Of a stretch of 64,000 bases of DNA, positions 2,465 to 38,942 are shown in pieces (positions within the stretch are counted from its first letter, which is position 1; every line of letters starts with the position of its first letter). The position numbers and the translations under genes are program-made. Source of the DNA: Balanoglossus misakiensis (taxonomy: Eukaryota; Animalia; Hemichordata); assembly GCA_040954595.2 (NCBI GenBank), contig CM082594.2, positions 9,490,296 to 9,554,295 on the forward strand. The letters run 5' to 3'. The notes beneath the pieces are model-generated. The model was given only the letters and a program-made list of their open reading frames with translations, did not search any database and was not told the origin of the DNA.

Positions 2465-2514
2465 TGCAAAGAATTTACAGGTCGTCGTTTTGAGCGGCCA
2501 TGTATAGCTTTGTG
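2465..2514 (+). promoter_or_regulatory. Collagen 5' stem-loop (LARP6-type) enclosing the start codon
   Basis: TGCAAAG-AATTTACA-GGTCGTC-GTTTT-GAGCGGCC-ATGTATAG-CTTTGTG. Lower stem GCAAAG/CTTTGT and upper stem GGTCG/CGGCC. Resembles vertebrate CCACAAAG-AGTCTACA-...-ATGTTCAG-CTTTGTGG (recalled). Confidence 0.7.
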
Positions 2515-2593
2515 GATAATACCCATCGGAGCCGATGGATGCTCTTAGCGTTTGTAGGTTTATGTTTTCTGGCAGCCCTGGCAGAAGGACAAA
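2500..2593 (+). CDS. Collagen exon 1, signal peptide [31 protein letters not shown]
   Basis: GCCATG start context, N-terminus like COL1A1 MFSFVD, hydrophobic core, phase-1 donor A|GTGAGT. Confidence 0.9.
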
Positions 2594-17500: not shown

Positions 17501-20500
17501 GTTATGAGGGTTAATTTTGTGAAAGTGTTTCAATGAATGAGAATATCATCATTTCTATTTTTAATATTTTTCCCTGTAGCTGACAAGGAGTTAAACGTGA
17601 TCGACACAGATATAAAAGTAGATGAGCCACCTGTCGTTGAAGAAGGCAAACCATCAAATCCTATCGACTTTGACGTTGACGTGACTTCTGACCCAAGAAG
17701 TGACGACATCGATGGTGATGACTTGTGGAAAGTGAGAACACTACTGAGTTCGACTCCCGACGGACAAACAGACCGAGATATCCTCAGCGAAGATGTGTTG
17801 CCCCCAAGAGACAAAGACAAAGACCTGCCGTCGGACTCAACTATCACTTTTCCCGACCTGAATACAAATGTGGACATGAGAAACAAAGACTGCGATGAAG
17901 CCAAATACTTCTGTGTTGAAATGAGCAAAGATGACAGAGCCAATCCTGATTATGCCATGACAGGACGACCTGAAGATTTGGTAGACTGTGTACCTCTGGA
18001 CTGTAAAGAAGGTATCTATCATTTTTTCTTGCCAAATGCTGGTGCCAAATTTCCTTATTTTTGCACATTTTTCTCTCATTTTTCCTTTATTCCTCATGCC
18101 GAGTATTTTCAACTGTGAATATTCATCTGAACTTTATTTTTTCGTATTTTCCAGAGGATAAACCTGTCAATGTGGTCGAGACAGACCTAACTCCTCACAG
18201 TAATTATCCAGTCAAAGAGGGATCGCCGAACAACCCAGTTGATTTTGACGTACAACTGGAGTCTGATCCGACGGGAGGCGACGCAGACGGAAACAACCTG
18301 TGGAAAGTGAAAACGTTCACCAGTTCGACACCAGATGGTCGCAACGACAGAAATACGCTTGACGAGCAGACCCTGAGGCCGACTCAGTCGGATCAAGATT
18401 TGCCTGCCGGCGATTCCACAACCTTTTACAACCTGCGAGCAAACGTGGACATGACAACTCTGAAGTGTGGTGAAGTCGACTACCTGTGCGTAGAAGTCCA
18501 AAAGGAATACAATGCTGATCCTGATTTTGACTTGCAAGGAAGTCTTGTGGACTGTATACCCTTACGGTGCACTAAAGGTTTGTCTGTTGCCATGGGGACG
18601 CGTCGATTCTACCAGCCCCTCTGCTAGTGGTCATCTCCTCTGCCCGCTTAGTTTGGGTCTGACCTCGGCGCCTTCAGTGGTGTAGTTAGAGAGCCACACA
18701 ATATTGAGAAATTGGAGGAGGTTTAGGAGACAGGGTTTCCACTGAAAGGGCTTTCCTCCATCTCTGCCAATCGATCAAAAACGCTTCTGATGTTTTTATG
18801 TATGCTAGTATCTTGGTACAGCAGTTTGTGTCCTCTATATCATTGCTTTCCAAACTCTGATGAGCACTCTGGTTCCAACCCCTGAAACTTCTTTTCAGCC
18901 CCCATCCACTTTTGTCGTCTGTGAAATTGGCCAAAGGTGCCAGATCCTCTTGTGTCACTCCCATCATAGAATCACAGTTTCTACACTGCTGTAGACTGTG
19001 AAGTTCTTTTACCAGCTCCTAACCACTTGCAGCATACGGAATCGTGGTTCTGGTGAAGGTTCTTTAAGTGGTTGAGGCACCCTTTCTTTTCCATTGATTT
19101 CACATACGGAGGTCGCTCTTCCGGATCTGTAGGCCTTTCTGCATACATTTACATTCCCACCACTGACTTCACCACTGTGTCCTCAGACTATACACTTTCT
19201 GTCACTTAAATCTCAGACAGGTGAACTTTTCAGCACTGTGCCAAGTGGTATCCATGCTCGAAAGAAGATGGTCCTACTGCATGCAGAGATGATCGTACAT
19301 GTACTTTGTTACAAACACACACATCACACATTCCCCTCCCCCACAAACAGCTGAGTATTACCGTGCATGCCTCCACTGTAGACAACACAATTTTGTCTTG
19401 CACAACATTCCACGTTTAGTCACAACACAGGTTCCAACAACTGCAGCATCGATGGGCCACCGCTATTACTGTGAAACCGTTTTTCTCTTTACAGTGTGTA
19501 TTTTCAAAATGTTTTTAAACTGTTGTAAATCATTGATAAGTTTTTTGACTGTTTTCAGTTGTCACCTAATCTGTTTTGTCTTCTGCTTTTTTTTCATGAA
19601 ATCTGATTATCAGGAGGTGATACGGTGAGTAATTTCATCATTTTCAACGCCATAGTGATTTTCCTTTGCTGTTGTGATAAAAGTCATTAGCAAAAACGAA
19701 AATGTAGATAGATTTGTAGAGTGGACAAAGAACATTGGAATAATGATGATCAGTTAAAGATCAGATTTTTGCCATAACTTGCATGTGGTTTGATTGGCAT
19801 GATAATTTTCATTTGGATGGACTGGACAATGCCAATTTACTATTGTCACAAGCATTTTCATTTTTATTTTCATGAAGACATTGGTTTTAATTGGCATGAA
19901 CATGCATGTCTGTTAGAATGTCTTTTGATTGCTGTGAAAGTGTTTAGTGTTTTGCATGATGAGGCAGTTTCCTTTTAAACCATGTTGAGTTACTATGGTT
20001 ACTCAATCAGTTGCCATGACAAAATTGCCTTGTTTGCTAGCGAACAATCTTGTTGCGATGACAACAATGTAAGTTTCAACAAAAACGACAGCATTTACTT
20101 TGTGATCCATCTCTGAGCAGAATTTTATCAGCATGGCTATACACTCAAATTGATTAGTTCAGAAAATTAAATTTGATAAACATGACATTATTTTTTTTAC
20201 CTTAATTAGCATGATTTGATTAGCATGACGTTGATTGATTTGATTTTGCATGACAATGAGTTTTTCATCTTGATTAGCATGACATCAGTTGATTTGATTT
20301 GATTTGTTTTGACAAATTAATATTGCTATGACAACAATATAGCGTACAATTTGCATGTTATTGTAATTACAAATGATTGAAATTGCTCCAAGTTTCTTCT
20401 GTTTGATCTACATTACAATTATGTTAGTTTGATGGTTCTGGTATACGAAACCCCCTGGACACATCATATACGTTTAACCAAATCTATCCGAAACTCTGGG

Positions 20501-23500
20501 TAACTTGTGGGTGGAAAATGTCTGCATGGGAAGTGTCTTGGGGGTAACCGTCTTGATTGATTCAAAGAATATCTCCATGACATACACAATTAGGAAAGTT
20601 TGGTGCCATGGTAACAATGTGGTTCCATGACAACAAAATGGTTGCAACGACAAACAGTTTGACTGGCATGACAAAGGGTTTATAGGACATCAGTGACGAG
20701 GTTTGCATGGGGTTTGATTGGCATGACAACAAACTTATTTTGTTTGGCATGACAACAAACAAGTTGATTTACTGCACAAGATGATTGCCATGACAACATT
20801 CAATTAGATTGCCACAACAATGAAACATATTGATTGCCATGACAATTGGTCTTGTTTGATTGGCATGACAACATATACCTTTGATTGCTGTGACAATGTA
20901 CTATTTGATTGCCATGACAACATTTGTTTCCAATTATTTTATCCACTTGGCAGCCTGATCAAGGAGAGAAAGGAGATCCAGGTGAAGTGGTGAGTGTCGG
21001 GTGAAATGCCAAAAAAAAAAAAAAAAACTAAAAAAATATGAAGTCTGTGTTTTCAGTTATTGTCAATGGATAAAATATGCATACACAATCTCAGGTTGGG
21101 TGGTGATACGAGATATGTTCTGATCATTCTGTCAGAACACATTACTGCCCCAGTGCATTTAACTGAATATTCTTCCCTCTCCTTCCTATACACACATATC
21201 AAATCAACACCCACCTTCCCCAGACATCAAACCAAGACAAATATGCCAATACTTTCCCCTCATATCAAACCAAGCCTCAAAATACACCCCCTGAAAAATC
21301 AGATCATATCTCTCACCACATGGACGTGCACCAACCTAGATTGATATGTATGCAAACTTGCACTGCTTTGAATCACATAATGACATTTCTTGGGATAGGT
21401 GAAAGTTTATTACAGCATTACTGTTGTGCAATCCACATTGCCAGTATTTTACGTTTTTTTTACAAATTACATTCTCATAATTATACAAATTATGATACAA
21501 TGTGCGTTGGACAACAGTGTTTCTTTGAAAGATGTTGACCTCTATGTCTCTTGTCTTTTGTCACAAATGATCCCTCAGTCCTTGTCATCAACTCTATAAC
21601 CATTTCATCATCAAGTAATTCCTTATTTTCCAATTCCATATACCTATAGTACAACTTCAAATCAGCAATGCCTGCAACTTTTTTGATATTTTATGTCAGT
21701 ATTTTGCTCCCTATAGCAACATGCATTTCAACATGCTTCAAAGAGTAGAACATTTAATATACATGTATGGGGGAAATACAACAAATACGACATTCGATAT
21801 CAAAAAGTTACAGCTGGCTCCCATCTCTTTAATGTGTGTGAAGTATAAAAACCTGTTTATTAAAAGAAATCTGTCCTTACTAGAGAGGTGTCCTGATTAG
21901 AGTGGTTTCTATAGAAAGATGTGTTCTTTGTGGTTTCTTTGTGGGAAAAAATAATACCTGTTTCAACAACAGTTTGGTAGTACATGCTTCAATGTGCACT
22001 GCTGTAAACTGAAAGTTGATGTTTTATTTTTTCAGCCTGATGGAAACGGACCAATTGGTGAACCAGGAATACCAGGAGAGACGGTAAGTCTTTTCCTAGA
22101 TTTTGATGAAATCTGCCCTCATCTTTTTTCCATTAAACACTTGGGGAATGCCAAGTTTTTTTTTCCATGGAAAATTCAAAACATTGAGACAGCTTCATTT
22201 GTTTTAGCCATCAATACAAGTTCTTTATTCTGCAGTTGTTAGTCGTTTGAAATTTGAAAACTATCTGTGACCTGCAATATGACACAACAGCACTGAACAA
22301 CAATTTTAACATTTTCTGTTTTAGGGCCCAAGAGGACCAGCAGGTTCCAGAGGCCCATCAGGACCACCCGGACCTCGAGTAAGTAAAATCCTCTCCTGGT
22401 TTCGTTTTAACGGTATTTGCTCATATTTTGCTAACTATGTCAAATACATGACTGTACAATGTATGTAGTCAGCTGCAGTACAAAGCCTTCAAATTCTATG
22501 CAACTCATCTTAGAAGCTGCTTGGCGAATTAAAATGAATCACTTTGTTCGTTTCCTTTGCAGGGTGACCAAGGTAATCCAGGACGAGATGGCAGACCAGG
22601 TCAGCCTGGACCACCAGGCCCACCCGGACCCCAAGGTATTGGATCATCACCCTCAGGTGGCGGTGAGAAAGGTCCCGGATTTGGCCAAGTTCAACAACCA
22701 GTTGCTATGATGCCAGGTCCTTCTGGACCAAGAGGTCCCACTGGCCCTCCAGGTCCAAGAGTAAGTATACAAGGGGCAAAGTTGCTCTCTTTTTGGGGTA
22801 TCTTGGTTTCTTTTGATATACATGTACATTTATATTTGTATAAGTCATTGTAATATTAGAGTGCGATTTACAATTGAAGCAAATCTCACGGTTTTGGCTG
22901 GCATGTTGTAAACCACACAACTTGAAGACGCGTATATGCTCTGAGGCATAGCACCAGGCTAATTTATAAACATCGTCAGAGCCATTTTGCAGACACACCT
23001 TCACTAATTTTGTTCCACCATGAATTTCTCCAAGTCTAGCGTTGTTTTTAAACCGTTAATCTAGCAGGGAACATGTCATTAACAATGACTTTTTCCTTGC
23101 CCAACAGGGATCACAAGGTTTTGCCGGTCCACCAGGTGAACCAGGAGAGATGGGACCACCAGTAAGTATATTTTTCTTGAGAATCTTTTATTTGTTTAGG
23201 CATATTGGGTTATTTTATACCCGGAAAACTTTCATATTTTGATATTGTAATAATAACCTATATCAGTGAGGGCTTGTTTATGGGCCTTAAATATTTGTAC
23301 ACATCACAAAAGCGAAAAATGCAAAATTGATCAGTTTTTAATGATTTTTTTCTGTAGGGTTTGATGGGTCCTCGCGGTCAACAAGGTCTTACAGGTGATC
23401 CAGGTGAAGAAGTAAGTGAAATTCAACTTTTTAAAGTGTAAATGAGTTTAAAACTGTCATATGCACATGAGTGATGATTCAAGCTTTGATAATCATTGGC

Positions 23501-26500
23501 TTTGCATGTTACTGTAACATCGTGGCACTTTCACAGTTTAAATATATCCTGTTGCTTTCCTAGGGTGAACGTGGTGAAGATGGTAGACCCGGTCCCCCAG
23601 GTCCAGTTGGTCCCCAAGGTGGGCGTGGTTCCTCAGGACTTCCCGGAATGCCAGGACCTAAGGGTCACAGGGTAAGCTGTATTCTTATCCTTTGATGATG
23701 TGGAAACGTGAGCTTAAAATGATGTGCTTTATGCTTATTAAAAGTATTGGGTGTGTACCCGGTAATGCTATTTTGGATATGAGCCCTGGCGCTTTGTATT
23801 TAAAATTCACAGCGTTCAGTGTTTGCTCTGTCTACAAATGTAGTTTGTCTGTGCAAGGCATTCAGGGAAATGGGAACTTGTAGTTGTCACTGATGGTTGA
23901 TTCTTTTGTTTTTATGTCACCAGGGTTGGAATGGAAACGATGGAAAACCAGGTGAGGCAGGAGCACCAGGAGATCGGGTAAGTCCTAATTAACCCTCCCC
24001 CCCCCCTCCCACTACTAAAAGTTAGTTCAGTCCACATTGTTTGCAGTGGAATTTGTGGAGCATACACATGAAAATGGGGGGAGACTGAATTGCATGTCGT
24101 CTGCAGTATTATAAACAGATAATACTAGTACATATATAAATCACCAAAAGTTGTACTACTAATTTGAAAGTATCTGATTACTGTTACTGTCATGAACTTG
24201 TTGGATGTGCTTTTCCAATCACTTTGAAATGCTGTGAAGCACAGTCTCTGATACATTACCCTGATGTAGGTATCTTGAGGATCGTGACTGAAAGTTCACA
24301 GCAAAAAATTGTTTTTGTTTTAGAAAGTTGTCTTGATAAAAAGAGATGGTCTTGATGACAAGCTTACAGGATAACTGTCAAGTGTTTAATATTTTGATTT
24401 TGTTTGGTTACAGGGTGAAAGTGGTTCCCCTGGACAATCAGGTTTACCTGGACAACCGGTAGGTGCTGAACTTTGGAAAGAAGTTCATCCATGCAGATCT
24501 ATCGAGAAACAATGCCGTTGATTGGATTAATTGACTGCTGTGAAATCCTTTGATTGGGCCAATTTGTTGAAATACAGGATCATTTATGGGCCTTGGAATA
24601 ATGTTAGAATTTATGTAATAGTTTTCAAAAGGGATAGTATTTAATATAATGTTTTTGATACATTCACTTGTAGGGATCAAGAGGATTGCCAGGCGAAAGA
24701 GGAAACCCAGGAAGTAATGGAGAACCTGTAAGTAACAAATGTCCCACCTTAAGTTAGCTTTTATGCCTCTGTATATATGAAGATTTGTGATCATTTGATT
24801 ATCATCAACTTTAATACAAAACAGACTTGAGAAAAGATATAATCACTTTGCAAATCACTACCAGATTTTTCCCTTGGCCAATAGTCTGCATAAAGAGAAC
24901 TGTGATTGAAATATTACCCGGACAAACACTGTGATGTGTGTGATACTGACAATTAAGACATAAAATGTATCTTTTCTTGCAGGGAGCAAGAGGATCTGAT
25001 GGCCCACCTGGAGCTTCAGGACCACCGGTAAGTACAATCTGTCAACAGAAAGGGTTCGTTGTCTCACAGCTGAATGTGCCTTGTTTTGGTCTGACCTTTG
25101 TGATAATTAATCAACTGCATAATATTCATTCATAATGTTTGTACTAATGTTACTTGCTTGTAGTTTTGAATGAGTTCTTCGTGTCTGGACTGTTTTTAGG
25201 GATCACCAGGTCAGTCAGGACAACCAGGATTTCCAGGCAGTCCAGGAGCAAAGGGAGAATCAGGAAAACCCGGAAACACAGGTCCATCCGGTCCACAAGG
25301 TGCCAGAGGAGAGGCTGGTCCAGTCGGTCCACCCGGATCTTCCGGTCAAAGAGTGAGTAACGTTTGAATTTAACAAAAGCAGCAATGTAGGTTTACTTAG
25401 CAGTGAACAGTTAAATGTTTACTAACTGTTTTTTTATGTTTGATTTCTGTGAAATGGAATTTTTAATCAGACACCCTGGAACCTGTGTACATTAGAATTT
25501 TTTCAATGAATATTCTATCTCTCCCTATTAGGGTCCACCTGGTGTAAATGGCGTTCCCGGAGGCAAAGGTGAAACTGTAAGTATAAATGATCATTGCTGT
25601 ATCCTGTCAGTACGTCACTTTGTAATACTGTGCTTTATATCACAAAACTATGCTGTCAGATTATTTTGTGGTACTATTTTAAACTCAAAAATATTTTGGA
25701 TGCCATGCACTCATAAGACAAAATATATCAATTATTAATTATCAAATTCTCTCTTTCTTTCCCAGGGTTCTTCAGGTATGCCAGGTTCACCTGGTTTTCA
25801 AGGACCACCTGGCGCACCTGTAAGTACATTATATCTCTTCCTGATTGGCTCGATTTCAGATTTTTTATCCTCTAAGGATCACTGCATTGGCTGTTAAACT
25901 CAAAACTTGATTTAGTGGGTTACAAAGCTTGTACATGTTCAAGAATGGTGTGCTTTTTTCACTAACTTGCTAACAATTATTATTTTTCTTGTGTGATTTC
26001 AGGGTATTGCAGGAAGTGCTGGTCCAACTGGAGCCAAAGGTTCTCAGGTAAGCCTGAAATATGAACCACTTTAATAATAAACCACTGGTGCTGTGAATGG
26101 ATCCTTATCTTTGAAGTCACCGTAATTCACATTTCATGACAACATATTGACTGTGTTCGTCTCAAAAAATAATTGAAACATGCACATTTTTATCGATAAA
26201 TTTATGGCAAAACGATTGATCTTTTTATTTTCCAGGGAGACCCAGGTATTAGTGGAATGAAAGGAGAACAGGGCCCATCTGGTCTGCCAGTAAGTACTCT
26301 ATTGATTTTATGTAGATATTTATGACCTTACAAGAATTGAATATAGTCTGATCACGATTTCTGTTTGCATCCACCATTTTGAATTGATATTTTCGCTTGT
26401 TCCTCCATGGGTAACTTTAGAGGGGTCAGACTTGCAAGTTTCAGACAGAGCAAGAAGAAACTTTTCGTATTTTGTCTGTATATATAATCATCAGTTAGTG

Positions 26501-29500
26501 AATATAATCAGTGCTATGATGTGGTTGTGGTATTGTTTAATATAAATAAGTTTTTCAATATTTCTTCTAATTAAAACATAATTTTTTTCTCACCAGGGTA
26601 ACCCTGGTCCAAGAGGTTTGTCAGGAAACCCAGGAGACGATGGCAAAAGAGTAAGTCACTGCATGATTATATCAATAGTTCTCTCAACACTTCTTTTTTT
26701 ATTTTTCAGTATTTCTATTTGTATTTTATATTTCTTAAATTTTCATCTGCGATATGCAATGACAAATTAATTTTGTATTTTGTTTCCAGGGAGACCGTGG
26801 TGATCCTGGTCCACCAGGTGCAGCAGGTGCCCAGGGAGAATCTGTAAGTATAACTCTCTCACCACTATGGTTTAGTCCAAATCCATTGTTTTCTATGGTA
26901 AAGTTGGACCTCTTAAGAGGATACTCAGAGAAGATAATCAGAGAAGACTAGTAAATTTGTTTGACGTTACATTGTAACTTTCTGTTTTGGTAAATTACCA
27001 TGGAAACCACATCAATACCCTACATATTTTGCTGTTTCCTCTAGGGATCTCAAGGTTTACCAGGTTTCCCAGGACAGCCAGGTAGCGTTGGACCAAAGGT
27101 AAGATTTAAATAGAATCCTGTATGCAGATGTTATCATCAGACTTTTCACCGCAATCAGTTTAACGAATCCCCTATACAGGCAAAAACACATGCCTATTCT
27201 ACAGCCCACACTCCAACAACAAAACATATGCTTGACTTTCTATCTCTGTCTAGCTTTCTCATCCTCATGTCAATCATTTTGTCGTTTCCAGGGTGACACT
27301 GGAGATAGAGGCAATCCAGGTCCATCAGGTCTGAAGGGACCCGCTGTAAGTAAATGGTTTCTACCTGCTCACTAGTTTATACTTTAAGTAAAATTCTTTA
27401 TCCCAGATTCCTGGGTTACTTTAAAGGGGAAACATGGTTTATTCCAGATTGACAGTTTTCTGAAAACCAAAATGAACTCATTAGAACATAACAGTGAAAT
27501 AGTTGCGCAAAAAAAATACGCTAACATTTTTCTGTGATTTTGCTATTTATGGATGGAGACAATAAACATCCGACAAACATGGAAATAAAAGAATTATTTA
27601 GGTTACAATTTACACTTTCATATTTACAGGGTGACACAGGAAGACAAGGACCACAGGGTATGCCTGGACCAAGAGTAAGTTGGCTCACTGTATTATCACT
27701 CTATGCACGAAAATGGTTCAATTATTGGCATATATGAGAGAAACGGTGGAATTAACCAAAATTTTACAACACTGGTAATAGTCAGAATTGCAAACTAAAA
27801 CAGAAGTGGAAGGTGCAGCTGATGTATTTCGATGCAAATTGATTCACCTCAGCAGATGCGTACCAGATAATTATTTTTCATGAAACAAAGTTTGTGAGAT
27901 GTAAGTTTTGTTTGAAATCAGAGATTCCTCACAAGTTGTGTGTCTTTAATTGGTATGTTGAGTGTATCGCTTGAAATTTTGATATGGACGTTTCGTTTAT
28001 GTTTTGTCAGGGTATGACAGGCGCTCCAGGTAAAGATGGCCAACAGGGAAGAAGTGGTGCTCCAGGTATTCCTGGCGACGATGGACGAGCTGGAAGTGAA
28101 GGAATGCCTGTAAGTCCAAGTGATGATAGAGGAGCAATCAACAACATTTTCACTTTAAAAAAACCACATGCCAATAGTGCTAGATGTATGTGTGTATATG
28201 TACAATGTGTGTATGTTCCTTCTAACTGTAACATCATCTTCTTCAATTTTTCTTTAGGGTCTGCCTGGCAAGAGTGGTATTATGGGTATGCCTGGTCCCA
28301 AAGGTCCTCAGGTAAGACATCTTCAGAACGACATCATGTGGAACAATTATAGTCTGAATGTTGTGTAGGATATTCTCAATTATCCTCATCAGAATTTCAT
28401 TCAGTGCAGTTTGTAATCCGTTCTTTTCTATCATTTACTTATAAATCTGATGATATTTTTTTTTTCCATTTAGGGTGACCCTGGCAAAGATGGTTCAACT
28501 GGTCAAACAGGTCCCAGAGGAGCAAGGGTAAGGCAATAAATGTTAATGCAGATTTTGAGGGTTTATTATAATTACAGAGAAGTCATATGGAGTAGGTACA
28601 GACTGGAAGAAGTTCAGTATGCGCGCACAGTTCAGTATGCACTTATCGTTTATTTTACTCTGTTGTTTTCCGGTTGTATGTAGGGAGAGCCCGGCAAAGA
28701 TGGTGATCCCGGACTTCCAGGTTTGGTGGGACCCCGTGGTGCAACTGGTGAAAGAGGTGCTCCTGGTGCCGCTGGTGGTCAAGGTTCTATGGGTCCATCT
28801 GGAATGCCAGGTGCACCTGGTGAAGCCGGACCGGCAGGAGAAGCAGGTGTTCAGGGTGATGTGGGACCACCTGGTCCAGCAGGTCCAAGGGTGAGTGATT
28901 GGGTTTACTTGTCTATACTTTTGATATTCCAAAGTTCACTGTTTCAGAATTTTTGTTTCCATTTCTGATCTTGACCAGTATGTGCTGTTTTGCAGATATT
29001 GTGAGAAAATCTAGGGCAATTTGAGCAGTCGCTAGAATTTCTTTTTTATACCTCTCAATGGAATCTCAACATGAGGGATTATTTTCACTGGTTATTCGTA
29101 ATTTTGTTTTGGAAGACACCCCTATAACAAAATATGTTGTCATTAGACTTTGCCTGATTGGACGTGTTCTTAGTCAACTTATGTTTAAAATAAACTTGAG
29201 GTTCTGATATTTAATTGTCTCTGATTTACACAAAATTTATGATTATGTTGTAGGGCATCAAGATATTTTGTCTACGTGCTGCTTCGCAGCAATTCCAAGG
29301 GTAGTTGACAGTTGTCAATTCTCTTGCACCAAGCTTTGCAAATTTGAGAACACACCCTTTTTCTTTATTTTGCCAGTCATTTTAAATAGGACCAGCAACC
29401 TTGCTTGTGGGTTTGCATTTTCTGAAGAAGTCAACACAGTGTGATATGCAAACCCCTTGAACAGAATTCAGGTTTTATTTTTTCATTTTTCCCATTCTGA

Positions 29501-32500
29501 CGTTTAGGGTAGCACAGGTCAGCAAGGAGATCGAGGTCCATCCGGCGCGAGAGGACCTCGTGGCGCACAAGGTCCACAGGGTGACAGAGGAGATGATGGC
29601 GATAAGGTCAGTGGCGGAGGGTTATATACTTCTTATCATTCCACAATCACTCATATGTTGTTTGTACTGTTTGTACGTACAGGGTGAAAGAGGTTTTCCG
29701 GGAGACAGGGGGCGAGTTGGTGCCACTGGAAGACGTGGCCTTCCGGGATCAGCCGGAGAGGCCGGTGCAGAAGGTCAAAAGGTTGGCTAACAACTGCACT
29801 GCATGCACTAACTTTGTACACTGCATGTAAACGTGCATGTGCATGCATGGAAACACGATGGGAATACATTATGTCAAACTCGCATTTATCATTGTACAAA
29901 GTTTCAGGACTATGTTTTGGGTAGAAATTTTGGCCACTGTGAAAAGTTCCCACGTTGCACAGGACGGCAGCTAACCAACTAACCAGCAGAAACCAAAAGA
30001 CAGAATTCATTGAATACCAAGCGAGGACTGCACTGAGCTTCAGCGATCAAAAATATCCAACTCCTGGCTAGCAATATTTGAATCCAGCCATGAAAAGCGT
30101 GATTTTCAGAACATCAAACTTTAAGAACTGAAAATTGCGAAGGAAAGCCCACTGAAAACTGCATGTCTATTTTCAAAATTTATGAAAAATGAAAATTGCA
30201 TGTTGTCGTCAAGGTGAAGACCGAAACACAACCATTAAATGCATGTCCGTTGCCATGGAAAATAGATTACTGCATGACTGCAGGGGAATAAACGCCAATG
30301 AAAATGCATGTCATTGGTCAAGGGTACAATTCGTCTATCTCTCTTCCAGCTTGCATTATTACATTGTTCTTATAATGGTAGAGGGGTAAAACATTTTTAT
30401 CCACCAAACCTTTGGTGGACTTTTGCAGCAATATATCTATGCAACAAGATATGTTCAATCAGTGATGTAGATAGATAAGCTTTGTAAGAGTGAAGAAGAA
30501 ACTATAGTTGATACACAGAGATCAAAAACCAAACCTTGTAGCTGGTTATATGGCAAGCACAGCAGGCATTCGACATTGTGACCAGCTAATACAATAATAT
30601 CTACATCACTGATTCAATTATGGCAGACGGGCCTCGCATTCTCATTCTCAGTTACTTCTGGATGTTATTTTTCCTCTGAAACATTATGATTATGCATGTG
30701 TTTACAGGTAGAGCAGTAAGATTAAAATATCTTGTGAACTTTACTTCCATTGAAAACAGTGCAGAGTTACTTTTTTCAAATGTCTCTTTATAAATAAGTT
30801 TTCTGGTTTTTCTTCATTTTCTTTTTGATCATGCACTACAACAGGTGGTGTTCACTGCTTATGACTTGTCGCATGTTGTGCCTTGTCCAATACGGTAGTG
30901 TTAGTTGCACATTTAAAGTCTTTCTTCTTCCGTTTTCTCCTTTCTTGAAAACAGGGTACATCCGGTGCCCCAGGTCTACCAGGTAAACAAGGCGACATGG
31001 GAATCCAGGTTAGTTAGTAAGCTTTCATTTACAAGTAGGTTGCTTCAACAGATGGCATAGTTGTTTTGAATAGAGAACATATTGTATATCTTGATGACTG
31101 AAAAGTTTCAATGCTTTAGAATGTTGGGCAGATCATGAAGAGAGTCCTCTAGCCCAAAATCATACCTTCTTCCCCAGAGAAAAAAATACTTCAAAAGTTG
31201 ATGAGATCAGCTCTCTCTGGCCAACCAAATTGGCGTTTTTGTTTCATGTCTTGAATTGAGAAGTTAACTGACGGACATTCTACTGATTCTAATAATATTG
31301 ACTAATGTGTCTGAGGCATTGATGAGTAAATATTTGATTTGATTTTCAGGGTCTGCCAGGTCCACAAGGTCTAACTGGTGCTCAAGGTTCCAAAGGAGAC
31401 GCTGTAAGTCTGAATGACAGTCAAAGTGGAAAAAAGCTCTTGATCTTTGTTCAGTGGATGATTCCAAGCTCCAGAATATATTTAGACATCATTTTGCGGT
31501 GAATTTGAACATCTTGACAATCACGTAAATTTTAGGAATTACACTCAAACCAGCAATGTTGTTCTGACCAAAACAGCAAACACTGTAGTGTAAATCAGCA
31601 TCTGCAGTATACCGCAAATGGATTTTTTGTTTATGAAGTTCCACATTTTTATTTGACAGGGAGATTCAGGTGATCCGGGTCCATCCGGTCTGCCAGGAAG
31701 ACCAGGCAATCCAGTAAGTAGAATTTAAATTTTATGGAATTATCCAAGTGAGAGTTACAAAGCAGGTCTCATCTCCTGCAAGGATTTTGCGTGCCATTTT
31801 GTCTGGAATATTTTGGGTGTCTTTACAATACATGACAAAAAGTTGTCCTTTCTTCCCAGGGTCCAAATGGTCCAATAGGTCCAGCCGGTCCCACAGGTCC
31901 ATCAGGAGACAAAGGAGCACTGGGTCCAGCTGGTGCTCCAGGCCCAAGAGGTTCCAGAGGAGAAACAGTAAGAGCCTTTGTTTTCTTCTATTGATAATTT
32001 GCTTGTCATAAGGGTGGCCATTTTAGTTTGTTTTAAAGTTATACATGTATGTCTCCCATCATCTGCGCTTTGGCAAGCTGGCTGAAAAATGAAAATACTT
32101 AAAACAGCTATGTTTGCTAATTAAACTTGGTTTTGAGGGGTGACTCACAATCCCTCGGGGTTACAGACGTATGCTGTTGCCCTCATGGCCTGTCAATATG
32201 TGTATACTGATCACCAACCCATGCCAACCAGGCCATCATAAAAATGTCTGTTGTTTCTTACAGGGAGAACCAGGAGAGCCAGGCAGACAAGGTCAATCCG
32301 GAGACCCAGGCCCATTGGTAAGTATAACTACTTATTTTATGGCAGTGTTTCCTCACATATGAAAAAAAAAATCAACATTTTAGTGAATGTTAAATGATCT
32401 GGGGAAAATCACTAAAAGATGATCTTATTTTTGGAAGTGCCTGTTAATTTGTGTATTTCTAATTTGTATTTATAGGGAAGACCGGGAAGTCCCGGAAGAG

Positions 32501-35500
32501 CAGGCAGACCAGGAGAACCAGGACCCAAGGTAACATTCCCAAATCTCTGTCAACTGTCTAGTTTTGTGAAATGTTTCATAGCACAAGTGGAAAAGCGTCT
32601 GATTGTGATTTTACCTTGAGTAATGTAATGAATGTTTTTTGATTGGTAGGGTGAAGAAGGTGAAGCAGGTACACCAGGTGAACGTGGAGATCAAGGAGAA
32701 ACAGTGAGTACCTTTTCAATTTCTGAAAAAATCTGGTCTATTTTTACCATATAAAGGATAAAATTAGCAAAAAGTTACAAGTTTAACGATCGCTATGGAG
32801 ATAATCCCATGTTGACAATTTCTTTTATCAGGGTGACCCCGGTATTGCTGGCGAGAAAGGAGATAGAGGAGATCGTGGTCTACCTGTAAGTGCATTTTAC
32901 TTCACTTTCCTGTCCTCTGTCTGTGCCTTCTTTGCGCACTCCATTTTCATGCTTCAATACAATGCATTCCTGGAATGTTCCCTGATGTCTAACCACTCTT
33001 TGACAATCCTTAAAATGTCCTGGAAAATTTGAACTCATCCTTAAAAATACTGGAAAATTGATCCACAAAAACATTTGTGATGCACTTATTACATGCTCGC
33101 AACATTTTGAACTGAAATACTCCTGGAAACACCCCTGAAACTGGAATATGTTTCTTTAGTATTTTTTTTAGAATGATATGAATCATTTGATTGTGCTTTT
33201 TCTTTCTAGGGTCCACTTGGCGGTACAGGTCCGAGAGGTGTTCCTGGTGCTGAAGGTACTGTGGTAAGTTGAACAGTCTGTTTATACCTTTAATATTATG
33301 ATTGATCATCACAATGATCTTTACACACAAGAGATTTTCAACAGGACAATTCAGAGATACATTTGAGCAACTTCGTGAGATTTCTTTTCAGTGTTGGACA
33401 TGTGTCTAACAGAATGACCTTTGTTTTCTCTCTAGGGTCCAGTTGGTGAGAAAGGAGATGCCGGAGAACCAGGTCTAGCTGGTGCCAAGGTATGGAACAT
33501 TTTTTGTCAGACATAACCTGGTGGCCCGCCCTGACTATATACTTCTGCAGCTGGAAGGCTATCCTCAGTGAAACATAATGATACAAATGTTCTGTATTCT
33601 GTCTCTCATTTGCTGTGTTCCAGAATATGCAGATACGTGTAGTTCATCATCATTTATCAGTGCTTTTGAAGTACATTGTAGCCATGCAAAACTTCCAGAT
33701 TTGACATTGTTTTGTCCTGATTCCTTAGGGTGAGCCAGGTACAGATGGAGATCCCGGAAGACCCGGACCTGCCGGTGATCCAGGTTTGGAAGGACCGCTC
33801 GGACCAAAGGGAGACCCAGGAAAAGATGGTAAAGATGTAAGTATATCTATTTTTAACCATTTCTGTACAAGAATGAAAAACAAGCCTCAACAACATGTAA
33901 TCATTAATAGTTCTGAATTTCACCTCTAACTTTGTGTCTTTGTTCTTCATTTCAGGGTACACCAGGTACTCCTGGACCATCAGGTATTGTAGGAAATCTC
34001 GGAGGACCGGTAAGTCTGCAAAGTTTCACTGATGAAAATTCAGTTTTCGTAAACATTATCATGACAAGAGAGAACCACCGGTGGTGTGCGTGTTGATCTT
34101 TTTTAGCCCTTTTCTGATTTAATTGAGTCCAAATCATCGACATGATCCCAGGTCACGGTCGAGGACCTCACCATATCCTGTCACATCTTAACAGAGCATG
34201 TAGATCCAGGTTTTCTTTGATTCTATATTGTTCCATTCCACCTCAGCAATGCTATGACTGTGTGTGTAACTGTTTCCATTTTCTCTTCTAGGGTCCCGCT
34301 GGTCCCAGAGGTCTTTCAGGTCAAAAGGGAGAGCCTGGCTCAGCAGTGAGTATCTCACCTTTAGTCAAATGATCATTGCAATCCGTTCTAATATTATTCT
34401 GATTATGATAATTATATAATTATACTTTAATTATTTTACCAGGGTGAACAAGGCAAGAGAGGAGCTCCTGGTCCCGTGGGTCAATCTGGTCCAACAGGTC
34501 AATCAGGAGCCCCTGGTGCTCCTGGTAACCGTGGTGAACCAGGTCCAGAGGTAAGATTTCATTTTGGGCAGCTTCTTAAAGTTGCCTACTCTGTTGGTGA
34601 GATAAATGCTTTTGCTCCTGTCATACTCATGTAGTGTTGTGTGTATTTCAGCAGAATATGAATGAAAAATTAAGCGTTTGTCAGACCAGTTTTCGTTGAT
34701 AGGATGTAGCTTCCATCAGAAATAAATTTCTGTGGCAATGAAAGACTCTGTTGTTCCTAATTGTGTTTTTCACTTGATTGTAGGGTCCAGCTGGTCGGGA
34801 TGGTATCCCAGGTTTGGAAGGACAACCAGGTGGTAAAGGTGATCGTGGTCCATCGGGTGCCCCAGGTGCTAGTGGTATGCCAGGCCATATGGTGAGTATA
34901 TGCAGAAGCGTGGAATCTTAAGTTTGTCGCAAGATGTACTTCTGTTTTCAATCTTGCCTATATGTCTATGGTTACCGCATATCCATTAACTGTTGGATAC
35001 CATCAAGGCAACATCACAAGCTTTCCCATAAATCAAGCCTCAGTCCTCATCTTTGAGCTCCCAGCTGAACATAAGTTTAAATCTTCTTATTTGCAGGGTC
35101 CTCCAGGTCCAGCAGGCAGTGATGGTGCCCCTGGTGGTGATGGTGATCCAGGTGCTCCAGGTCCAGTTGGTCCAGAAGGTCCAAGAGGTGCAAGGGGTCC
35201 CTCTGTAAGTTGACTTGAATGTAACATTCAAACCACCTCAACCCCATCTCTACCATGAATGATTGACCAAACCTTGGCTCATTTCGGCCAAATTGCCACT
35301 TCAGTTGGGTTCTTTTGGCCAGGCACAAATATAGGCTACATGTTATTATACATGTGACATCATACTTTGTCTCTTTTCAGGGAGAAAATGGACTTCCAGG
35401 TCCTACAGGTGCGACAGGTCCAGCTGGTGCTAGAGTAAGTATAGACAGGATGCAATTCTTGGAAAAAAATCCTTATTTTTCACTTTTTTAGTTAATAGCC

Positions 35501-38500
35501 CCTGATACATGATCTGTTAACGTAGTACGTCGCGCCTCAGAAATCAGTTATCAAACTATGGAATCAAGATGTGCAGAAAATTAATCTGTTTTCTTCTTTT
35601 CTTTCTTTCTTCAGGGTACCAAAGGTCATCGTGGTTTCAATGGTATGCCTGGTAACCCAGGTATTTCTGTGAGTACCCACAATACATCAGTCATTTACAT
35701 TACCCACAGTGCATCAGTCATTCACACGGTTATCAAAACCGTTTTTCACCTGGGTGCTGTCATTGCACAGCTTCAACAATACCATTGAAATTTCCATTTC
35801 CAAAAGTGCAAAGATGCACTATGATTTGTCACAATTTTCACTATTCTGATTGGACCTAACACCTGTATTTTCATGCAGGGCGCTGCTGGTGAGAATGGTG
35901 CTCCTGGACCACCTGGTCCACCTGGGCCACGGGTAAGTCAATGCCTTTCTCTGTGTTTTTTATCAAAGTATACAAGCTCGATGAATTGTCACAATTTGAA
36001 GTTAACTAAAATATGCCTAACATCATACGTAGCACACATTTTATTCTTAGACGTGTGAAAATTTTTCATTGGTAGTGAACTAATGTCTTTTGAGAAAATG
36101 AGAGGCAACGACTCTTAATTATGATGTGTATTTTTTGATATAGGGTGAATCTGGTATCAGAGGTCCACCTGGAAGCAATGGTAAAGATGGACAGATGGGT
36201 CCAGGAGGTCCACCTGTAAGTGAACATTGATTGATTGATTTATTGATTTATGTGCATTTACTACATGTTCACCTCATAGATCACAAAAATTGAGTATTTT
36301 AATTGTTATCCATTTAATTATTTTCTAGGGTTTGAGAGGAGCTAGAGGTGACAGTGGAGATGATGTAAGTAAACGTATCTGAATATTAAAAAAATACTCT
36401 GCAGTTTCTATCAGTCCAAAACAGACATCCGGTATCCCAAAACTGTACAGTAAGAAACTTAGACAAAAATGAAGACCAAAAATTTCGCACAACTTCTTTG
36501 CAGTAAACCAACCATTTATCTAGTTTGTTTGCAAATAGCTCATTTTTTCTTGTTATCTTTTTTGTCCTTCAGGGTCAAGTTGGTCCCCCAGGTCCACCCG
36601 GTCCACCTGTAAGTATTATGTCTTTGCAAATTCATCACACAATGATTTTAGGTAGTATGCGTCTTGGGAACAGTTATGTTATGTTTAGACACAATTGCTC
36701 ATAGCAAAAGCATTTTACTGACGTAACCCTTTTCTGGACTTTTTTTTCTTTCACACAGGGTCCACCTGGTTCCGTGGTGAGTACGATTTCCTTTTCTGTC
36801 ACCTGCAGATTTTTAAAGTGAATTAAACCAGATATCCCCACAAATTTGTGGAGAGACGTTGGGAAACAAATCACATCAATTCAGTATCACAGAGTGTCTG
36901 TTTTATACATACTAGTATCTTGTAACCAATATTAAACACGTATGATGGTGAAATGTCCTATGTCATAAAAACATTACTGATTGTTATTGTTTAAAACGGG
37001 ATGAAAATACTAATCATTCGTACATCTTACAATGTTTTGTGCTTCTTTCACACAGCCTGAGTTCAGACAATATCCAGCTTACTTTTCCAACTACGGAGGA
37101 GTCAAAGGACCAGTAAGTGTGATTTCTTTGTAACTCTCGACACATTACATTTTCACCTCTCAAACTTCATAAAATAACAGCGAAATGCTTGAAATACAAA
37201 ACACGACTAACATGTTTTGTTTGGGTTTGTTTGTTCACTGTAGCAAGGAGACCAGCCACTTCCTGATGGTGAAGAGTTCCAAGCCGACAGCATTTCTCAG
37301 AAGTTGCACGACATCGAAGTTATGGCCTCACTGCAGTCACTTAACGATCAAATTGAGTCGATTCAGAGCCCAACTGGAACCAAGAAGAACCCTGCTAGAA
37401 CCTGTCATGACCTTGCACTCTGCCATCCAGATTGGCCAAGCGGTGAGTGTCTTAATTTTATCTTCCCTCTAATGCTTGCCTGGTTTAACACACAAATGCT
37501 GTCAGTCAAGAATTCATTGATTAATGTTAATTGATTATATTTGTTTGTTTGTTGATAGGTAACTATTGGATTGATCCTAACCAGGGATGTGCTGTTGATG
37601 CTATTGAAGTATTCTGTGACTTTGAAACCAAGGAAACTTGTGTGTATCCAAGGAAAGCAGAGGTATGTAGATGTTTGTTTTGAATATCATGGTTTTCCAA
37701 ATAATGTAATATTATTAATTAATTAATGTAATCACACAAGAAGTTAGCTGTAAACATAATTTTTTTGAAAATTGACCTCTCTGTTGTCTTAACCAAACAC
37801 ATATATATATATTTTTTTAATTTAATCCAGGCTACCCGTAAGAACTACTACACAGGACCGAGTAAATATGTCTGGTTTGGTGATAGCATGAAAGGTGGAT
37901 TCCAGGTATGAAAATGAATTTTAATTTAATTATAATTATTTCTTATATGATTCATTACCTTATGCTGATATTTTAACGCTTCATTGAAGTGTATTTACAT
38001 ATACAGTATCATTAGATACCTAAAACTCTCCTCAGATTGTGTTTGACATTCTCAAGACATTGGATTGGTCCAAATATTTTCCACCAACAACACTGACATT
38101 GGATTGGTCCAAATATGTTCCACCAACAACACTGCATCATGGGAAATATCACAAGAATCAGTGTTTGATATACCGGTACAGAAGAAATTCAAAACTCTGA
38201 AAATATTCTGAAAGACCTGACAGCTGCCGTCCCTTCAATCCCAAAAGCAATCAGACCATTTGAACCGCTTTCAATCTATAATTTACATTTTGTTGTTCTG
38301 ATTTCAGTTCACATACGACATCGAAGTTGTCCAGTTTACATTCCTTCGTCTTCTGAGTACAAAAGCTAAGCAAAACGTCACCTATCACTGCAAGAACTCA
38401 GTTGGATATTACGACGCAGAGAATGATAACTTGAAGAAGGCTGTGAAGTTCCTTTCAGACGCAGATGTAGAACTAGTTGCAGAGGGTAGATCTCGCTTCC

Positions 38501-38942
38501 AATACGATGTCCTCAAGGATACATGTACAGTAAGTAGAACTTCAAGATTTGTGACATGTCCATCCTGATCTTACATCCTGGCATTTTCATTTGCATGAAT
38601 CTGCTATTTTGATTGACAGTGAGTTGCCGCTCGACTGAGGTTCTGGCAAAAGTTTGCATTTTCAACCACTTTTTTGAGATTTATTTGAACACACAACAGT
38701 GTTCAGTTCTGCATCAAGTCTGCTGATCAGACAAACGACAAAATTTGTAGATTTCAGCTACTTATTCTTGCGTGTTTTATTCACTTCTTTTACAGTTACA
38801 CAACGGCGAATGGGGAGAGACAGTGTTTGAATACTCATCACCCAAAACAACCCGCTTCCCGATAGTGGATATAGCACCCATTGACATTGGTGGTGACGAT
38901 CAAGAATTTGGTTTAGAAGTAGGACCAGCGTGTTTCTCATAA
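2500..38942 (+). CDS. Fibrillar (clade A-like) procollagen alpha chain with VWC + 6 SURF modules, similar to sea urchin 2alpha/5alpha chains; ~66 exons, ~2,340 aa
   Basis: Continuous spliced frame from ATG 2500 to TAA 38940-38942 through GT-AG introns. Contains a signal peptide, VWC, six 4-Cys modules, 45/54/99/108-nt Gly-X-Y exons, two KGHR cross-link motifs and a COLFI domain. Confidence 0.95.
12287..12307 (+). CDS. Candidate 21-nt symmetric microexon (T)NISPRA(G)
   Basis: Long pyrimidine tract plus CAG acceptor, CAG|GTGAGA donor, phase 1-1, open frame between exon 1 and the VWC exon. Confidence 0.6.
14108..14308 (+). CDS. VWC (chordin-type cysteine-rich) exon of the N-propeptide
   Basis: [55 protein letters not shown], with the CxxCxC and CCxxC motifs. 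201 nt, phase 1-1. Confidence 0.92.
15033..15458 (+). CDS. SURF-like module 1 exon
   Basis: 426 nt, phase 1-1. 4-Cys pattern G..LW...C...YLC...C...C. Flanked by AG and GTAAGC. Confidence 0.85.
15619..16044 (+). CDS. SURF-like module 2 exon
   Basis: 426 nt, phase 1-1. GTDLWKL...CEDVPYFC...CAAIPC. Confidence 0.85.
16296..16727 (+). CDS. SURF-like module 3 exon
   Basis: 432 nt, phase 1-1. GDDLWKL...CDEAKYFC...CVPMDC. Confidence 0.85.
16884..17315 (+). CDS. SURF-like module 4 exon
   Basis: 432 nt, phase 1-1. Near-identical to module 5. Confidence 0.85.
17580..18011 (+). CDS. SURF-like module 5 exon
   Basis: 432 nt, phase 1-1. Differs from module 4 by 2 aa (T>K, T>A). Confidence 0.85.
18155..18577 (+). 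CDS. SURF-like module 6 exon
   Basis: 423 nt, phase 1-1. GNNLWKV...CGEVDYLC...CIPLRC. Weak donor AAG|GTTTGT. Confidence 0.82.
19614..19624 (+). CDS. 11-nt microexon (G)GDT converting phase 1 to phase 0
   Basis: CAG|GAGGTGATACG|GTGAGT after a pyrimidine tract. Needed to join the phase-1 SURF exons to the phase-0 minor-helix exons. Confidence 0.78.
19781..20925 (+). repeat. Degenerate intronic array of GATTG(G/C)CATGACAAC-like units, rich in GCATG and X-box-like sites
   Basis: 17 GCATG counted by eye in ~1.1 kb, plus several TTGCCATGACAA variants. Confidence 0.7.
20954..22760 (+). CDS. Minor triple helix, N-telopeptide and helix start exons
   Basis: Exons 20954-20989 ([12 protein letters not shown]), 22036-22083, 22325-22378 and 22563-22760 (...[35 protein letters not shown]). 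Confidence 0.9.
23108..28890 (+). CDS. Major triple helix exons equivalent to vertebrate exons 8-30
   Basis: Exons 23108-23161, 23358-23411, 23564-23671 (KGHR), 23924-23977, 24414-24458, 24674-24727, 24983-25027, 25200-25352, 25532-25576, 25766-25819, 26003-26047, 26236-26289, 26597-26650, 26790-26843, 27045-27098, 27292-27345, 27630-27674, 28011-28109, 28258-28311, 28474-28527, 28684-28890. All phase 0 and starting with Gly. Confidence 0.93.
26850..26915. mobile_element. Degenerate copy of the short piggyBac-like MITE family
   Basis: ATGGTTTAGTCCAAATCCATTGTTTTCTATGGTAAAGTTGGACCTC matches the reverse complement of the element at 54526-54618. Confidence 0.6.
29508..29606 (+). CDS. Helix exon '31A' (99 nt), putative mutually exclusive: [33 protein letters not shown]
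   Basis: TTTAG acceptor, AAG|GTCAGT donor, 11 perfect Gly-X-Y triplets. Confidence 0.88.
29683..29781 (+). CDS. Helix exon '31B' (99 nt), putative mutually exclusive: [33 protein letters not shown]
   Basis: TACAG acceptor, weak AAG|GTTGGC donor, 11 triplets. Homologous to vertebrate exon 31 (GERGFPGER...GAK). Confidence 0.9.
29800..30700 (+). promoter_or_regulatory. Intronic splicing-regulatory cluster (TGCATG x11, ACTAAC x2)
   Basis: TGCATG at ~29800, 29822, 29834, 29840, 29844, 30160, 30197, 30240, 30271, 30305, 30693. ACTAAC at ~29807 and ~29978-29985. Confidence 0.7.
30955..36776 (+). CDS. Major triple helix exons equivalent to vertebrate exons 32-49
   Basis: Exons 30955-31008, 31350-31403, 31660-31713, 31860-31967, 32264-32317, 32476-32529, 32650-32703, 32832-32885, 33210-33263, 33436-33489, 33729-33836, 33956-34009, 34292-34345, 34443-34550, 34784-34891, 35097-35204, 35381-35434, 35615-35668 (KGHR), 35879-35932, 36144-36215, 36329-36364, 36573-36608, 36759-36776. 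Confidence 0.93.
37056..38942 (+). CDS. C-telopeptide and COLFI C-propeptide exons
   Basis: Exons 37056-37112, 37244-37442 (FQA-D; [12 protein letters not shown]), 37559-37662 (YWIDPNQGC), 37831-37905, 38308-38529 (QFTFLRLLS...QNVTYHC), 38796-38942 (...[10 protein letters not shown]). Confidence 0.95.
38056..38133. repeat. Two-copy intronic tandem duplication (~38 nt)
   Basis: GACATTGGATTGGTCCAAATAT(T/G)TTCCACCAACAACACTG occurs twice. Confidence 0.85.

Follow-up and report, generated by a model that had tools for sequence, protein, structure and literature searches.

How does a fibrillar collagen gene with two adjacent, equally long helix exons keep both from entering the same chain? A gene in the hemichordate Balanoglossus misakiensis raises this question, and we analyzed it within a 64,000-nt stretch of the genome (the window). 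The original prediction, made from the letters of the window, was that the 76-nt intron separating the two exons, here called A and B, is short enough to enforce their mutual exclusion sterically. Our analysis leads us to lean toward this reading: A and B appear to be used one at a time, and the 76-nt intron likely cannot be excised owing to its short donor-to-branch distance. We rate the combined claim only a little better than even because it joins two separate judgments, namely that the exons are mutually exclusive, which is very probable, and that, given exclusion, the steric contribution is real, which is probable.

The gene and its exon pair

The gene was first detected on the plus strand as a multi-exon collagen by a scan for Gly-X-Y runs, and the non-helical exons were added later. 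The model (Table 1) was built from reading frame, splice signals and homology. With one of exons A and B included, the modeled open frame encodes 2337 aa, in the order signal peptide, vWC, six four-cysteine SURF-like modules, an 11-nt microexon, minor helix, major helix and C-propeptide. Pfam matches identify both the vWC domain of the N-propeptide (VWC, E 1.6e-11) and the COLFI domain of the C-propeptide (E 1.3e-25 and 3.1e-15). The major helix is uninterrupted over 1014 residues and is encoded by phase-0 exons, mostly of 54, 45, 99 and 108 nt. Both observations place the gene in clade A, for which a major helix of 1014-1020 residues is described as the norm (PMC2852846). Judged by sequence identity, the closest relatives of the gene are hemichordate proteins, with the seven N-propeptide exons sharing 63-74% identity with Ptychodera flava XP_070535949-51 and 46-56% with Saccoglossus kowalevskii proteins.

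Table 1. Features of the collagen gene and of the region around exons A and B (positions in the window)
Feature	Position	Strand	Description
Clade A fibrillar procollagen gene	2500..38942	+	65 exons, 64 introns (gene model)
Exon 1, signal peptide	2500-2593	+	
Upstream constitutive helix exon	28684..28890	+	207 nt, strong donor GTGAGT
Intron before exon A	28891..29507	+	617 nt, ranks second in length among 45 major-helix introns
Exon A	29508..29606	+	99 nt, phase 0, 11 intact Gly-X-Y triplets, donor GTCAGT
A-B intron	29607..29682	+	76 nt, GT...AG
Predicted branch region	29644..29654	+	candidate A 29649 (position 43, -34) and 29653 (position 47, -30, CACTCAT)
Exon B	29683..29781	+	99 nt, phase 0, 11 intact triplets, donor GTTGGC
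Intron after exon B	29782..30954	+	1173 nt, longest of 45 major-helix introns
Downstream constitutive helix exon	30955..31008	+	54 nt

Exons A and B have several hallmarks of an exclusive pair, being equal in length, identical in phase and assigned to the same slot in the protein. Including A alone or B alone gives a helix of 1014 residues and a spacing of 843 residues between the KGH cross-link sites. Including both gives 1047 and 876 residues, respectively, and including neither gives 981 and 810. Because either exon alone restores the 1014/843 arrangement, while both or neither would break helix length and spacing, we consider it very probable that A and B are mutually exclusive, each occupying one and the same stretch of 33 residues in the helix of 1014.

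A chain in which both exons are constitutive, with a longer helix of 1047 residues, is highly improbable. The reading frame does stay open with both exons, and the similarity between A and B does not detectably exceed that between other helix segments. However, the cross-link spacing would then move from 843 to 876 residues, and a chain of the sea star Acanthaster planci (XP_022088426.1), with a helix of 1011 residues, has the same KGH spacing of 843 as the single-exon chain. When the two halves of the Acanthaster chain are aligned to the single-exon chain, their offsets are 0 and +3, not 33 residues apart, and the protein has one segment at the A/B slot (its protein cluster has one member). 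Weak splice sites, the length of the flanking introns and the TGCATG cluster, all described below, also fit regulation rather than constitutive use.

The splice sites of the pair bear on another alternative, that a single exon is really used and the other is a silent or near-silent relic. Ranked among 63 sites, the acceptors of A and B are the 8th and 9th weakest; the donor of A is the 10th weakest, and that of B (AAG/GTTGGC) is the weakest of all. Against decay, both exons keep all 11 of their glycine codons, have no stops and retain their GT/AG splice ends, even though 46 of the 77 other positions differ between them. A dense cluster of regulator motifs also adjoins the pair. We therefore regard a relic as quite unlikely.

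An origin of the pair by duplication is plausible, and we go no further because the similarity of A and B is within the background range of unrelated helix pairs. The exons are identical at 53 of 99 nt and at 5 of 22 X/Y residues, a likeness matched by 14.5% of 46,971 unrelated in-register helix pairs at the protein level and by 18% of 44,850 at the DNA level. With only 53 of 99 nt in common, a duplication created during assembly is ruled out as the source of the pair. No third, decayed collagen exon was found in the introns of the gene longer than 300 nt.

Geometry of the short intron

The A-B intron is the shortest of the gene's 64 introns, followed by one of 97 nt (34346-34442), just as the original prediction had it; the median length is 201 nt (63 introns, exon 1 left out). 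Among the 45 major-helix introns, the shortest thus lies between the two longest, its neighbors of 617 and 1173 nt. A log-normal fit to the 56 other introns below 500 nt gives a probability of 0.003 that a named intron is 76 nt or shorter, and of 0.14 that the minimum of 57 introns is. The length of 76 nt alone is unexceptional; its position between two redundant exons is exceptional.

The CACTCAT motif to which the original prediction drew attention, about 46 nt from the donor of exon A, lies at 29648-29654; its adenosine, 29653, is the 47th nucleotide of the intron, which puts it 46 nt past the first G. Every number in the original prediction was thus confirmed. The intron has adenosines at positions 4, 12, 18, 20, 22, 29, 32, 37, 39, 40, 43, 47, 49, 60, 69, 73 and 75. 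A T two bases before the branch adenosine is the core of the branch consensus, and the six T-N-A sites of this intron (4, 18, 29, 32, 43 and 47) all lie at or before position 47. When sites closer than 15 nt to the 3' end are set aside, the farthest T-N-A of each of the 63 other introns sits at least 77 nt from the donor. Branch points usually fall 19-35 nt from the 3' splice site (PMC5378181), and the only adenosines of the A-B intron in this range are those at 43, 47 and 49.

A branch motif model, for which 60 of the gene's other introns served as training set, points to the same region. It scores position 43 (CAATCAC) at 6.8 bits and position 47 (CACTCAT) at 5.5 bits, compared with a median best score of 4.6 elsewhere, and in all 62 other introns scored the best branch is at least 63 nt from the donor. 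Motifs of the CACTCAT type are not enriched near the 3' ends of the gene's introns (CTCAY occurs 4 times in 1740 nt, vs 6 times in 2320 nt further up); YTRAY is enriched there (39 in 1740 nt vs 25 in 2320 nt) and is absent from the A-B intron. The A-B intron has no adenosine from -27 to -18, which is also the case in 4 of the 63 other introns, and no T-N-A from -27 to -9, as in 5 of the 63. That a permissive branch has been avoided in this intron is suggestive only. The adenosine at position 60 (-17), which has no T at -2, is a candidate for a poor branch point past the limit of about 50 nt discussed below. Internal AG dinucleotides occur only at positions 4 and 12, leaving an AG-free zone of 63 nt that 11 other introns exceed. 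As a separate observation, no reading frame of the intron contains a stop triplet, and TAA and TGA are absent altogether; the last 70 nt of 2 of 62 other introns are likewise free of these.

How short a donor-to-branch distance must be to prevent splicing has been studied in other systems. A steric limit of about 50 nt has been proposed, with a mapped branch point at 46 nt in a fish OGDH gene counted as close (PMC7969005). Steric exclusion is a known mechanism, and a distance below 50 nt, used as the cut-off in a survey of human mutually exclusive exon (MXE) clusters, was found in 57 of 629 clusters (bioRxiv 10.1101/133215). The limit of about 50 nt derives from mammalian and viral substrates and varies with the organism; in C. 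elegans, introns as short as about 40 nt are removed (PMC4165533). The predicted distance of 43-47 nt in the A-B intron is borderline, at the edge of the mammalian limit.

The claim of steric exclusion thus stands in part: all T-N-A sites lie at or before position 47 and the geometry is unique in the gene, whereas the branch point is a predicted one and its distance borderline. Among the observations that the original prediction named as speaking against it is a branch point close to the AG combined with the same geometry in many constitutive introns; within this gene, the geometry recurs in 0 of 63 other introns. Given exclusion, we judge a steric contribution to be probable. In such a mechanism, U1 at the donor of exon A and U2 at the branch site of the A-B intron would not assemble productively together. 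Joining of A to B would be blocked, and both sites would still be usable with outside partners. A steric block neither selects an exon nor stops double skipping.

The original prediction likened this arrangement to α-tropomyosin and α-actinin, and the comparison may hold for one feature and fails for another. In these genes and in OGDH exons 4a/4b, the donor-to-branch distance is below about 50 nt (PMC7969005, PMC2991248), as is the predicted 43-47 nt here; for OGDH the reported values are 25-41 nt in human and 46 nt in ocean sunfish (PMC7969005, PMC2991248). Their branch points, however, are remote from the 3' splice site and are followed by a long pyrimidine tract, whereas in the A-B intron the whole intron is short and the candidate branch points are at the ordinary positions of -30 and -34.

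Because the branch would be at an ordinary place and the intron is simply short, the closer model appears to be the short-intron type represented by exons 9 and 10 of the C. elegans α2(IV) collagen gene let-2. There, too, a pair of exons, each a multiple of three nucleotides, lies in the collagenous domain (PMC2119826, PMC4165533). The intervening intron is too short to excise in let-2 (PMC4165533), which is likely also the case for the 76-nt intron here. In let-2 the downstream exon has a weak donor and is activated from the intron past the second exon; here, too, the donor of exon B is weak, and candidate regulator sites lie in the intron that follows it. Several differences should be kept in mind. 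The let-2 product is a type IV rather than a fibrillar collagen (PMC4165533), and its intron of 30 nt is clearly below the organism's minimum of about 40 nt, whereas ours is 76 nt (PMC4165533). The let-2 exons differ mainly at a helix interruption, whereas A and B differ over 11 uninterrupted triplets. The let-2 regulator is ASD-2, of the STAR family, whereas enrichment of TGCATG is seen here (PMC4165533). Finally, exclusivity was established by RT-PCR in let-2 and is predicted here from one genomic sequence.

The original prediction also held that nonsense-mediated decay (NMD) cannot enforce exclusion since each exon is a multiple of 3. This is true of the spliced A+B product, but may not hold for a transcript that retains the 76-nt intron. 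The retained unit of exon A, intron and exon B is 274 nt long, shifts the frame and runs into a TGA stop at 29685-29687. A transcript retaining the intron between both exons would thus probably be cleared by NMD through this stop, backing up the block. Because joint inclusion and joint skipping both stay in frame, those two products would be invisible to NMD, and for this reason a hard lock would be needed.

Proposed control of exon choice

A lock that prevents joining of A to B leaves the choice between them to another layer. The intron after exon B contains 11 TGCATG motifs, 11 of the 26 found in 63 introns of the gene. Five lie at 29800-29849, within the first 70 nt of the intron, five more at 30160-30310 and one at 30693. 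No dinucleotide shuffle of 2000 reached 11 (mean 0.8). For comparison, 3 copies of the motif occur on the opposite strand, and intron 1 holds 5 over 11.5 kb. The intron before exon A (28891..29507) has no TGCATG. Among other motifs of the 1173-nt intron, CTAAC shows mild enrichment (4 present, a number reached by 31 of 2000 shuffles), and QKI-type ACTAAY is not (2 present, reached by 321 of 2000). The same intron also holds an inverted repeat of 20 nt (30454-30473 / 30598-30617), 95% complementary and 124 nt apart.

TGCATG is the Rbfox site, and it activates from a downstream position. We hypothesize that an Rbfox-type protein on this cluster rescues the weak donor of exon B in cells that express it and that exon A would be the default in other cells. 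Exon choice would then be a second layer, added to the steric block. Both the TGCATG cluster and the weak donor of exon B were found in our analysis and are missing from the original prediction. Rbfox is known to control mutually exclusive exon pairs in worms (PMC4165533), and our search found no publication on Rbfox or UGCAUG in invertebrate deuterostomes.

These same elements could also carry the exclusion by themselves. A and B would then be exclusive although the 76-nt intron is excisable: Rbfox-type activation of B, the weak sites and perhaps a repressor bound to the short intron's UG-rich tract would decide through regulation and competition, and the short length would merely couple the exons. 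This reading draws on the very strong TGCATG cluster, on the weak donor of exon B and on branch candidates at a normal distance from the AG. The small share of human MXE clusters that fall below 50 nt in the survey cited above is also in its favor, as is the measurement of the steric threshold in other organisms. However, it predicts neither that the intron should be the shortest of 64 nor that all branch candidates should lie less than 50 nt from the donor, and an in-frame A+B chain with no NMD safety net favors a hard block. We consider purely regulatory exclusion possible but somewhat unlikely, and continue to prefer a steric block combined with regulated choice.

Two further ways of controlling an exon pair were considered. 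Competing RNA pairings, with a docking site and selectors, could set the exon choice. One duplex, formed by the acceptor region of exon B with a site near 28971 in the upstream intron, outscored each of its 18 control stretches (-27.2 kcal/mol). However, the other 11 of 12 duplexes did not outscore their controls, and 1 in 12 is expected by chance; the local fold z-scores are -1.0 and -0.4, and no common selector pair was found among the inverted repeats. Such pairings are a most improbable explanation. Incompatibility between U2- and U12-type introns is ruled out, as a U12-type donor or branch motif occurs in none of the 64 introns.

Relation to other collagens and possible function

Exon B carries GFPGDR at residue 499, 415 residues after the first cross-link lysine, K84. 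In α-1(I) (PDB 3hqv_A), an alignment places GFPGER from residue 518 and the cross-link lysine at 103, which is the same offset of 415. Exon B is therefore positioned as the counterpart of the vertebrate exon bearing GFOGER, which is exon 31 of COL1A1. Where exon B has GFPGDR, exon A has GQQGDR. A lizard clade A fragment starting GERGHPGERG finds its best placement at the exact start of exon B, and the lizard segment matches B at 6 of 22 positions vs A at 3 of 22. Exon B is thereby weakly indicated as the ancestral exon; the Acanthaster segment, matching them at 3 and 4 of 22 positions, does not discriminate.

Chains of the A and B forms would have equal length and cross-link register and would differ in their surface over 11 triplets. 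Exon A contributes 5 basic and 5 acidic residues and lacks large hydrophobic ones; exon B contributes 6 basic, 4 acidic and 3 hydrophobic residues. Asp is not known to substitute for Glu in the GFPGER motif. A direct switch of α-I integrin binding is unlikely, as B reads GFPGDR rather than GFPGER and integrins with α-I domains are reported to be chordate-only (PMC2784866). The RGD in exon A is not unique either, since the B-form chain has six RGD. Our guess is that the swap alters fibril packing or the binding of another matrix partner.

In its fullest form, the proposal would be that a hemichordate, from a lineage reported to lack integrins with α-I domains, switches tissue by tissue the 33 residues of its main fibrillar collagen that correspond to the GFOGER cell-binding region of vertebrates, through a steric lock together with an Rbfox switch. 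We put this forward as an unlikely but consequential possibility. If it were true, one gene would yield fibrils of identical length and banding with a different surface at a spot in the GFOGER region, and this region would have been a regulated interaction hot spot before vertebrate collagen receptors arose. The clade A major helix is regarded as fixed in length and sequence, its chains having to line up in register; with an either/or exon pair, the sequence would vary at constant length. The locus also offers a compact test of the steric limit in a non-chordate deuterostome, with a predicted distance of 43-47 nt at the mammalian value, and a test of an Rbfox-type switch that would remodel extracellular matrix.

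Steric locking itself is already textbook, and the setting, the major helix of a clade A fibrillar collagen, was not found in print. Our search, which left most subscription journals outside its reach, returned no publication on mutually exclusive exons in the clade A major helix, and in the hemichordate fibrillar collagen literature no item concerned splicing as judged by title or start of the abstract. MXEs do occur in other collagen genes, since human COL24A1, COL9A3 and COL13A1, one of them fibrillar, are listed among genes with MXEs (bioRxiv 10.1101/133215), where they are named with neither the exons nor the domain or mechanism concerned. The helix of COL24A1 is of another, interrupted kind, unlike the 1014-residue clade A type (PMC2852846).

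Protein searches retrieved no orthologous helix among the matches listed. The protein encoded by the 207-nt exon gave 737 matches among 7636 candidates, none above 58% identity among the 120 matches listed. With the C-propeptide exon, 95 of 128 candidates matched, none above 66% identity, and those with names were nearly all vertebrate. A search of representative proteins gave 239 matches, with a single full-length collagen, that of Acanthaster, among the 150 listed. Metagenome data contain at least 19 loci at 42-63% identity. When the Ptychodera N-propeptide was compared with longer proteins, the one match among 7974 scored was a non-collagen sea-urchin protein.

The SURF-module collagens of ambulacrarians (sea urchin, Acanthaster and Ptychodera) resemble the present gene in having a vWC domain and four-cysteine modules before the minor helix, a layout described for sea urchin chains (PMC2852846). 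Unlike the exon pair studied here, the alternative splicing reported for them is in the N-propeptide (PMC2852846). The six SURF-like exons of the B. misakiensis gene are 423-432 nt long and lie at 15033-18577; three were tested and matched no Pfam family, and an ESM Atlas query with a SURF-like module gave no usable match. Two of the exons (16884-17315 and 17580-18011) are near-identical recent duplicates. RefSeq models from Ptychodera and Saccoglossus stop after the SURF-like modules, with no helix, and may represent either split models or a secreted product made of modules only. In Ptychodera isoform X2, the vWC exon alone is skipped.

The microexon of 11 nt (19614-19624) connects the minor helix with the phase-1 exons of the N-propeptide, and the same four residues recur where the Ptychodera model XP_070535949 ends. 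The intron that follows (19625-20953) has 7 TGCATG and 17 GCATG, compared with 1 and 1 on the opposite strand, and part of these sites sit in a repeated GGCATGACAA-like motif. This density suggests a second regulated splice. Joining exon 1 directly to the microexon at 19614, with the vWC exon and all six SURF-like exons skipped, would be in frame and give a short chain of 1413 residues, which resembles the short 1-α form of sea urchin (PMC2852846). Outside the gene, open frames of low complexity with abundant Gln, Pro and Gly on the minus strand at about 53900-55000 are likely exons of another gene.
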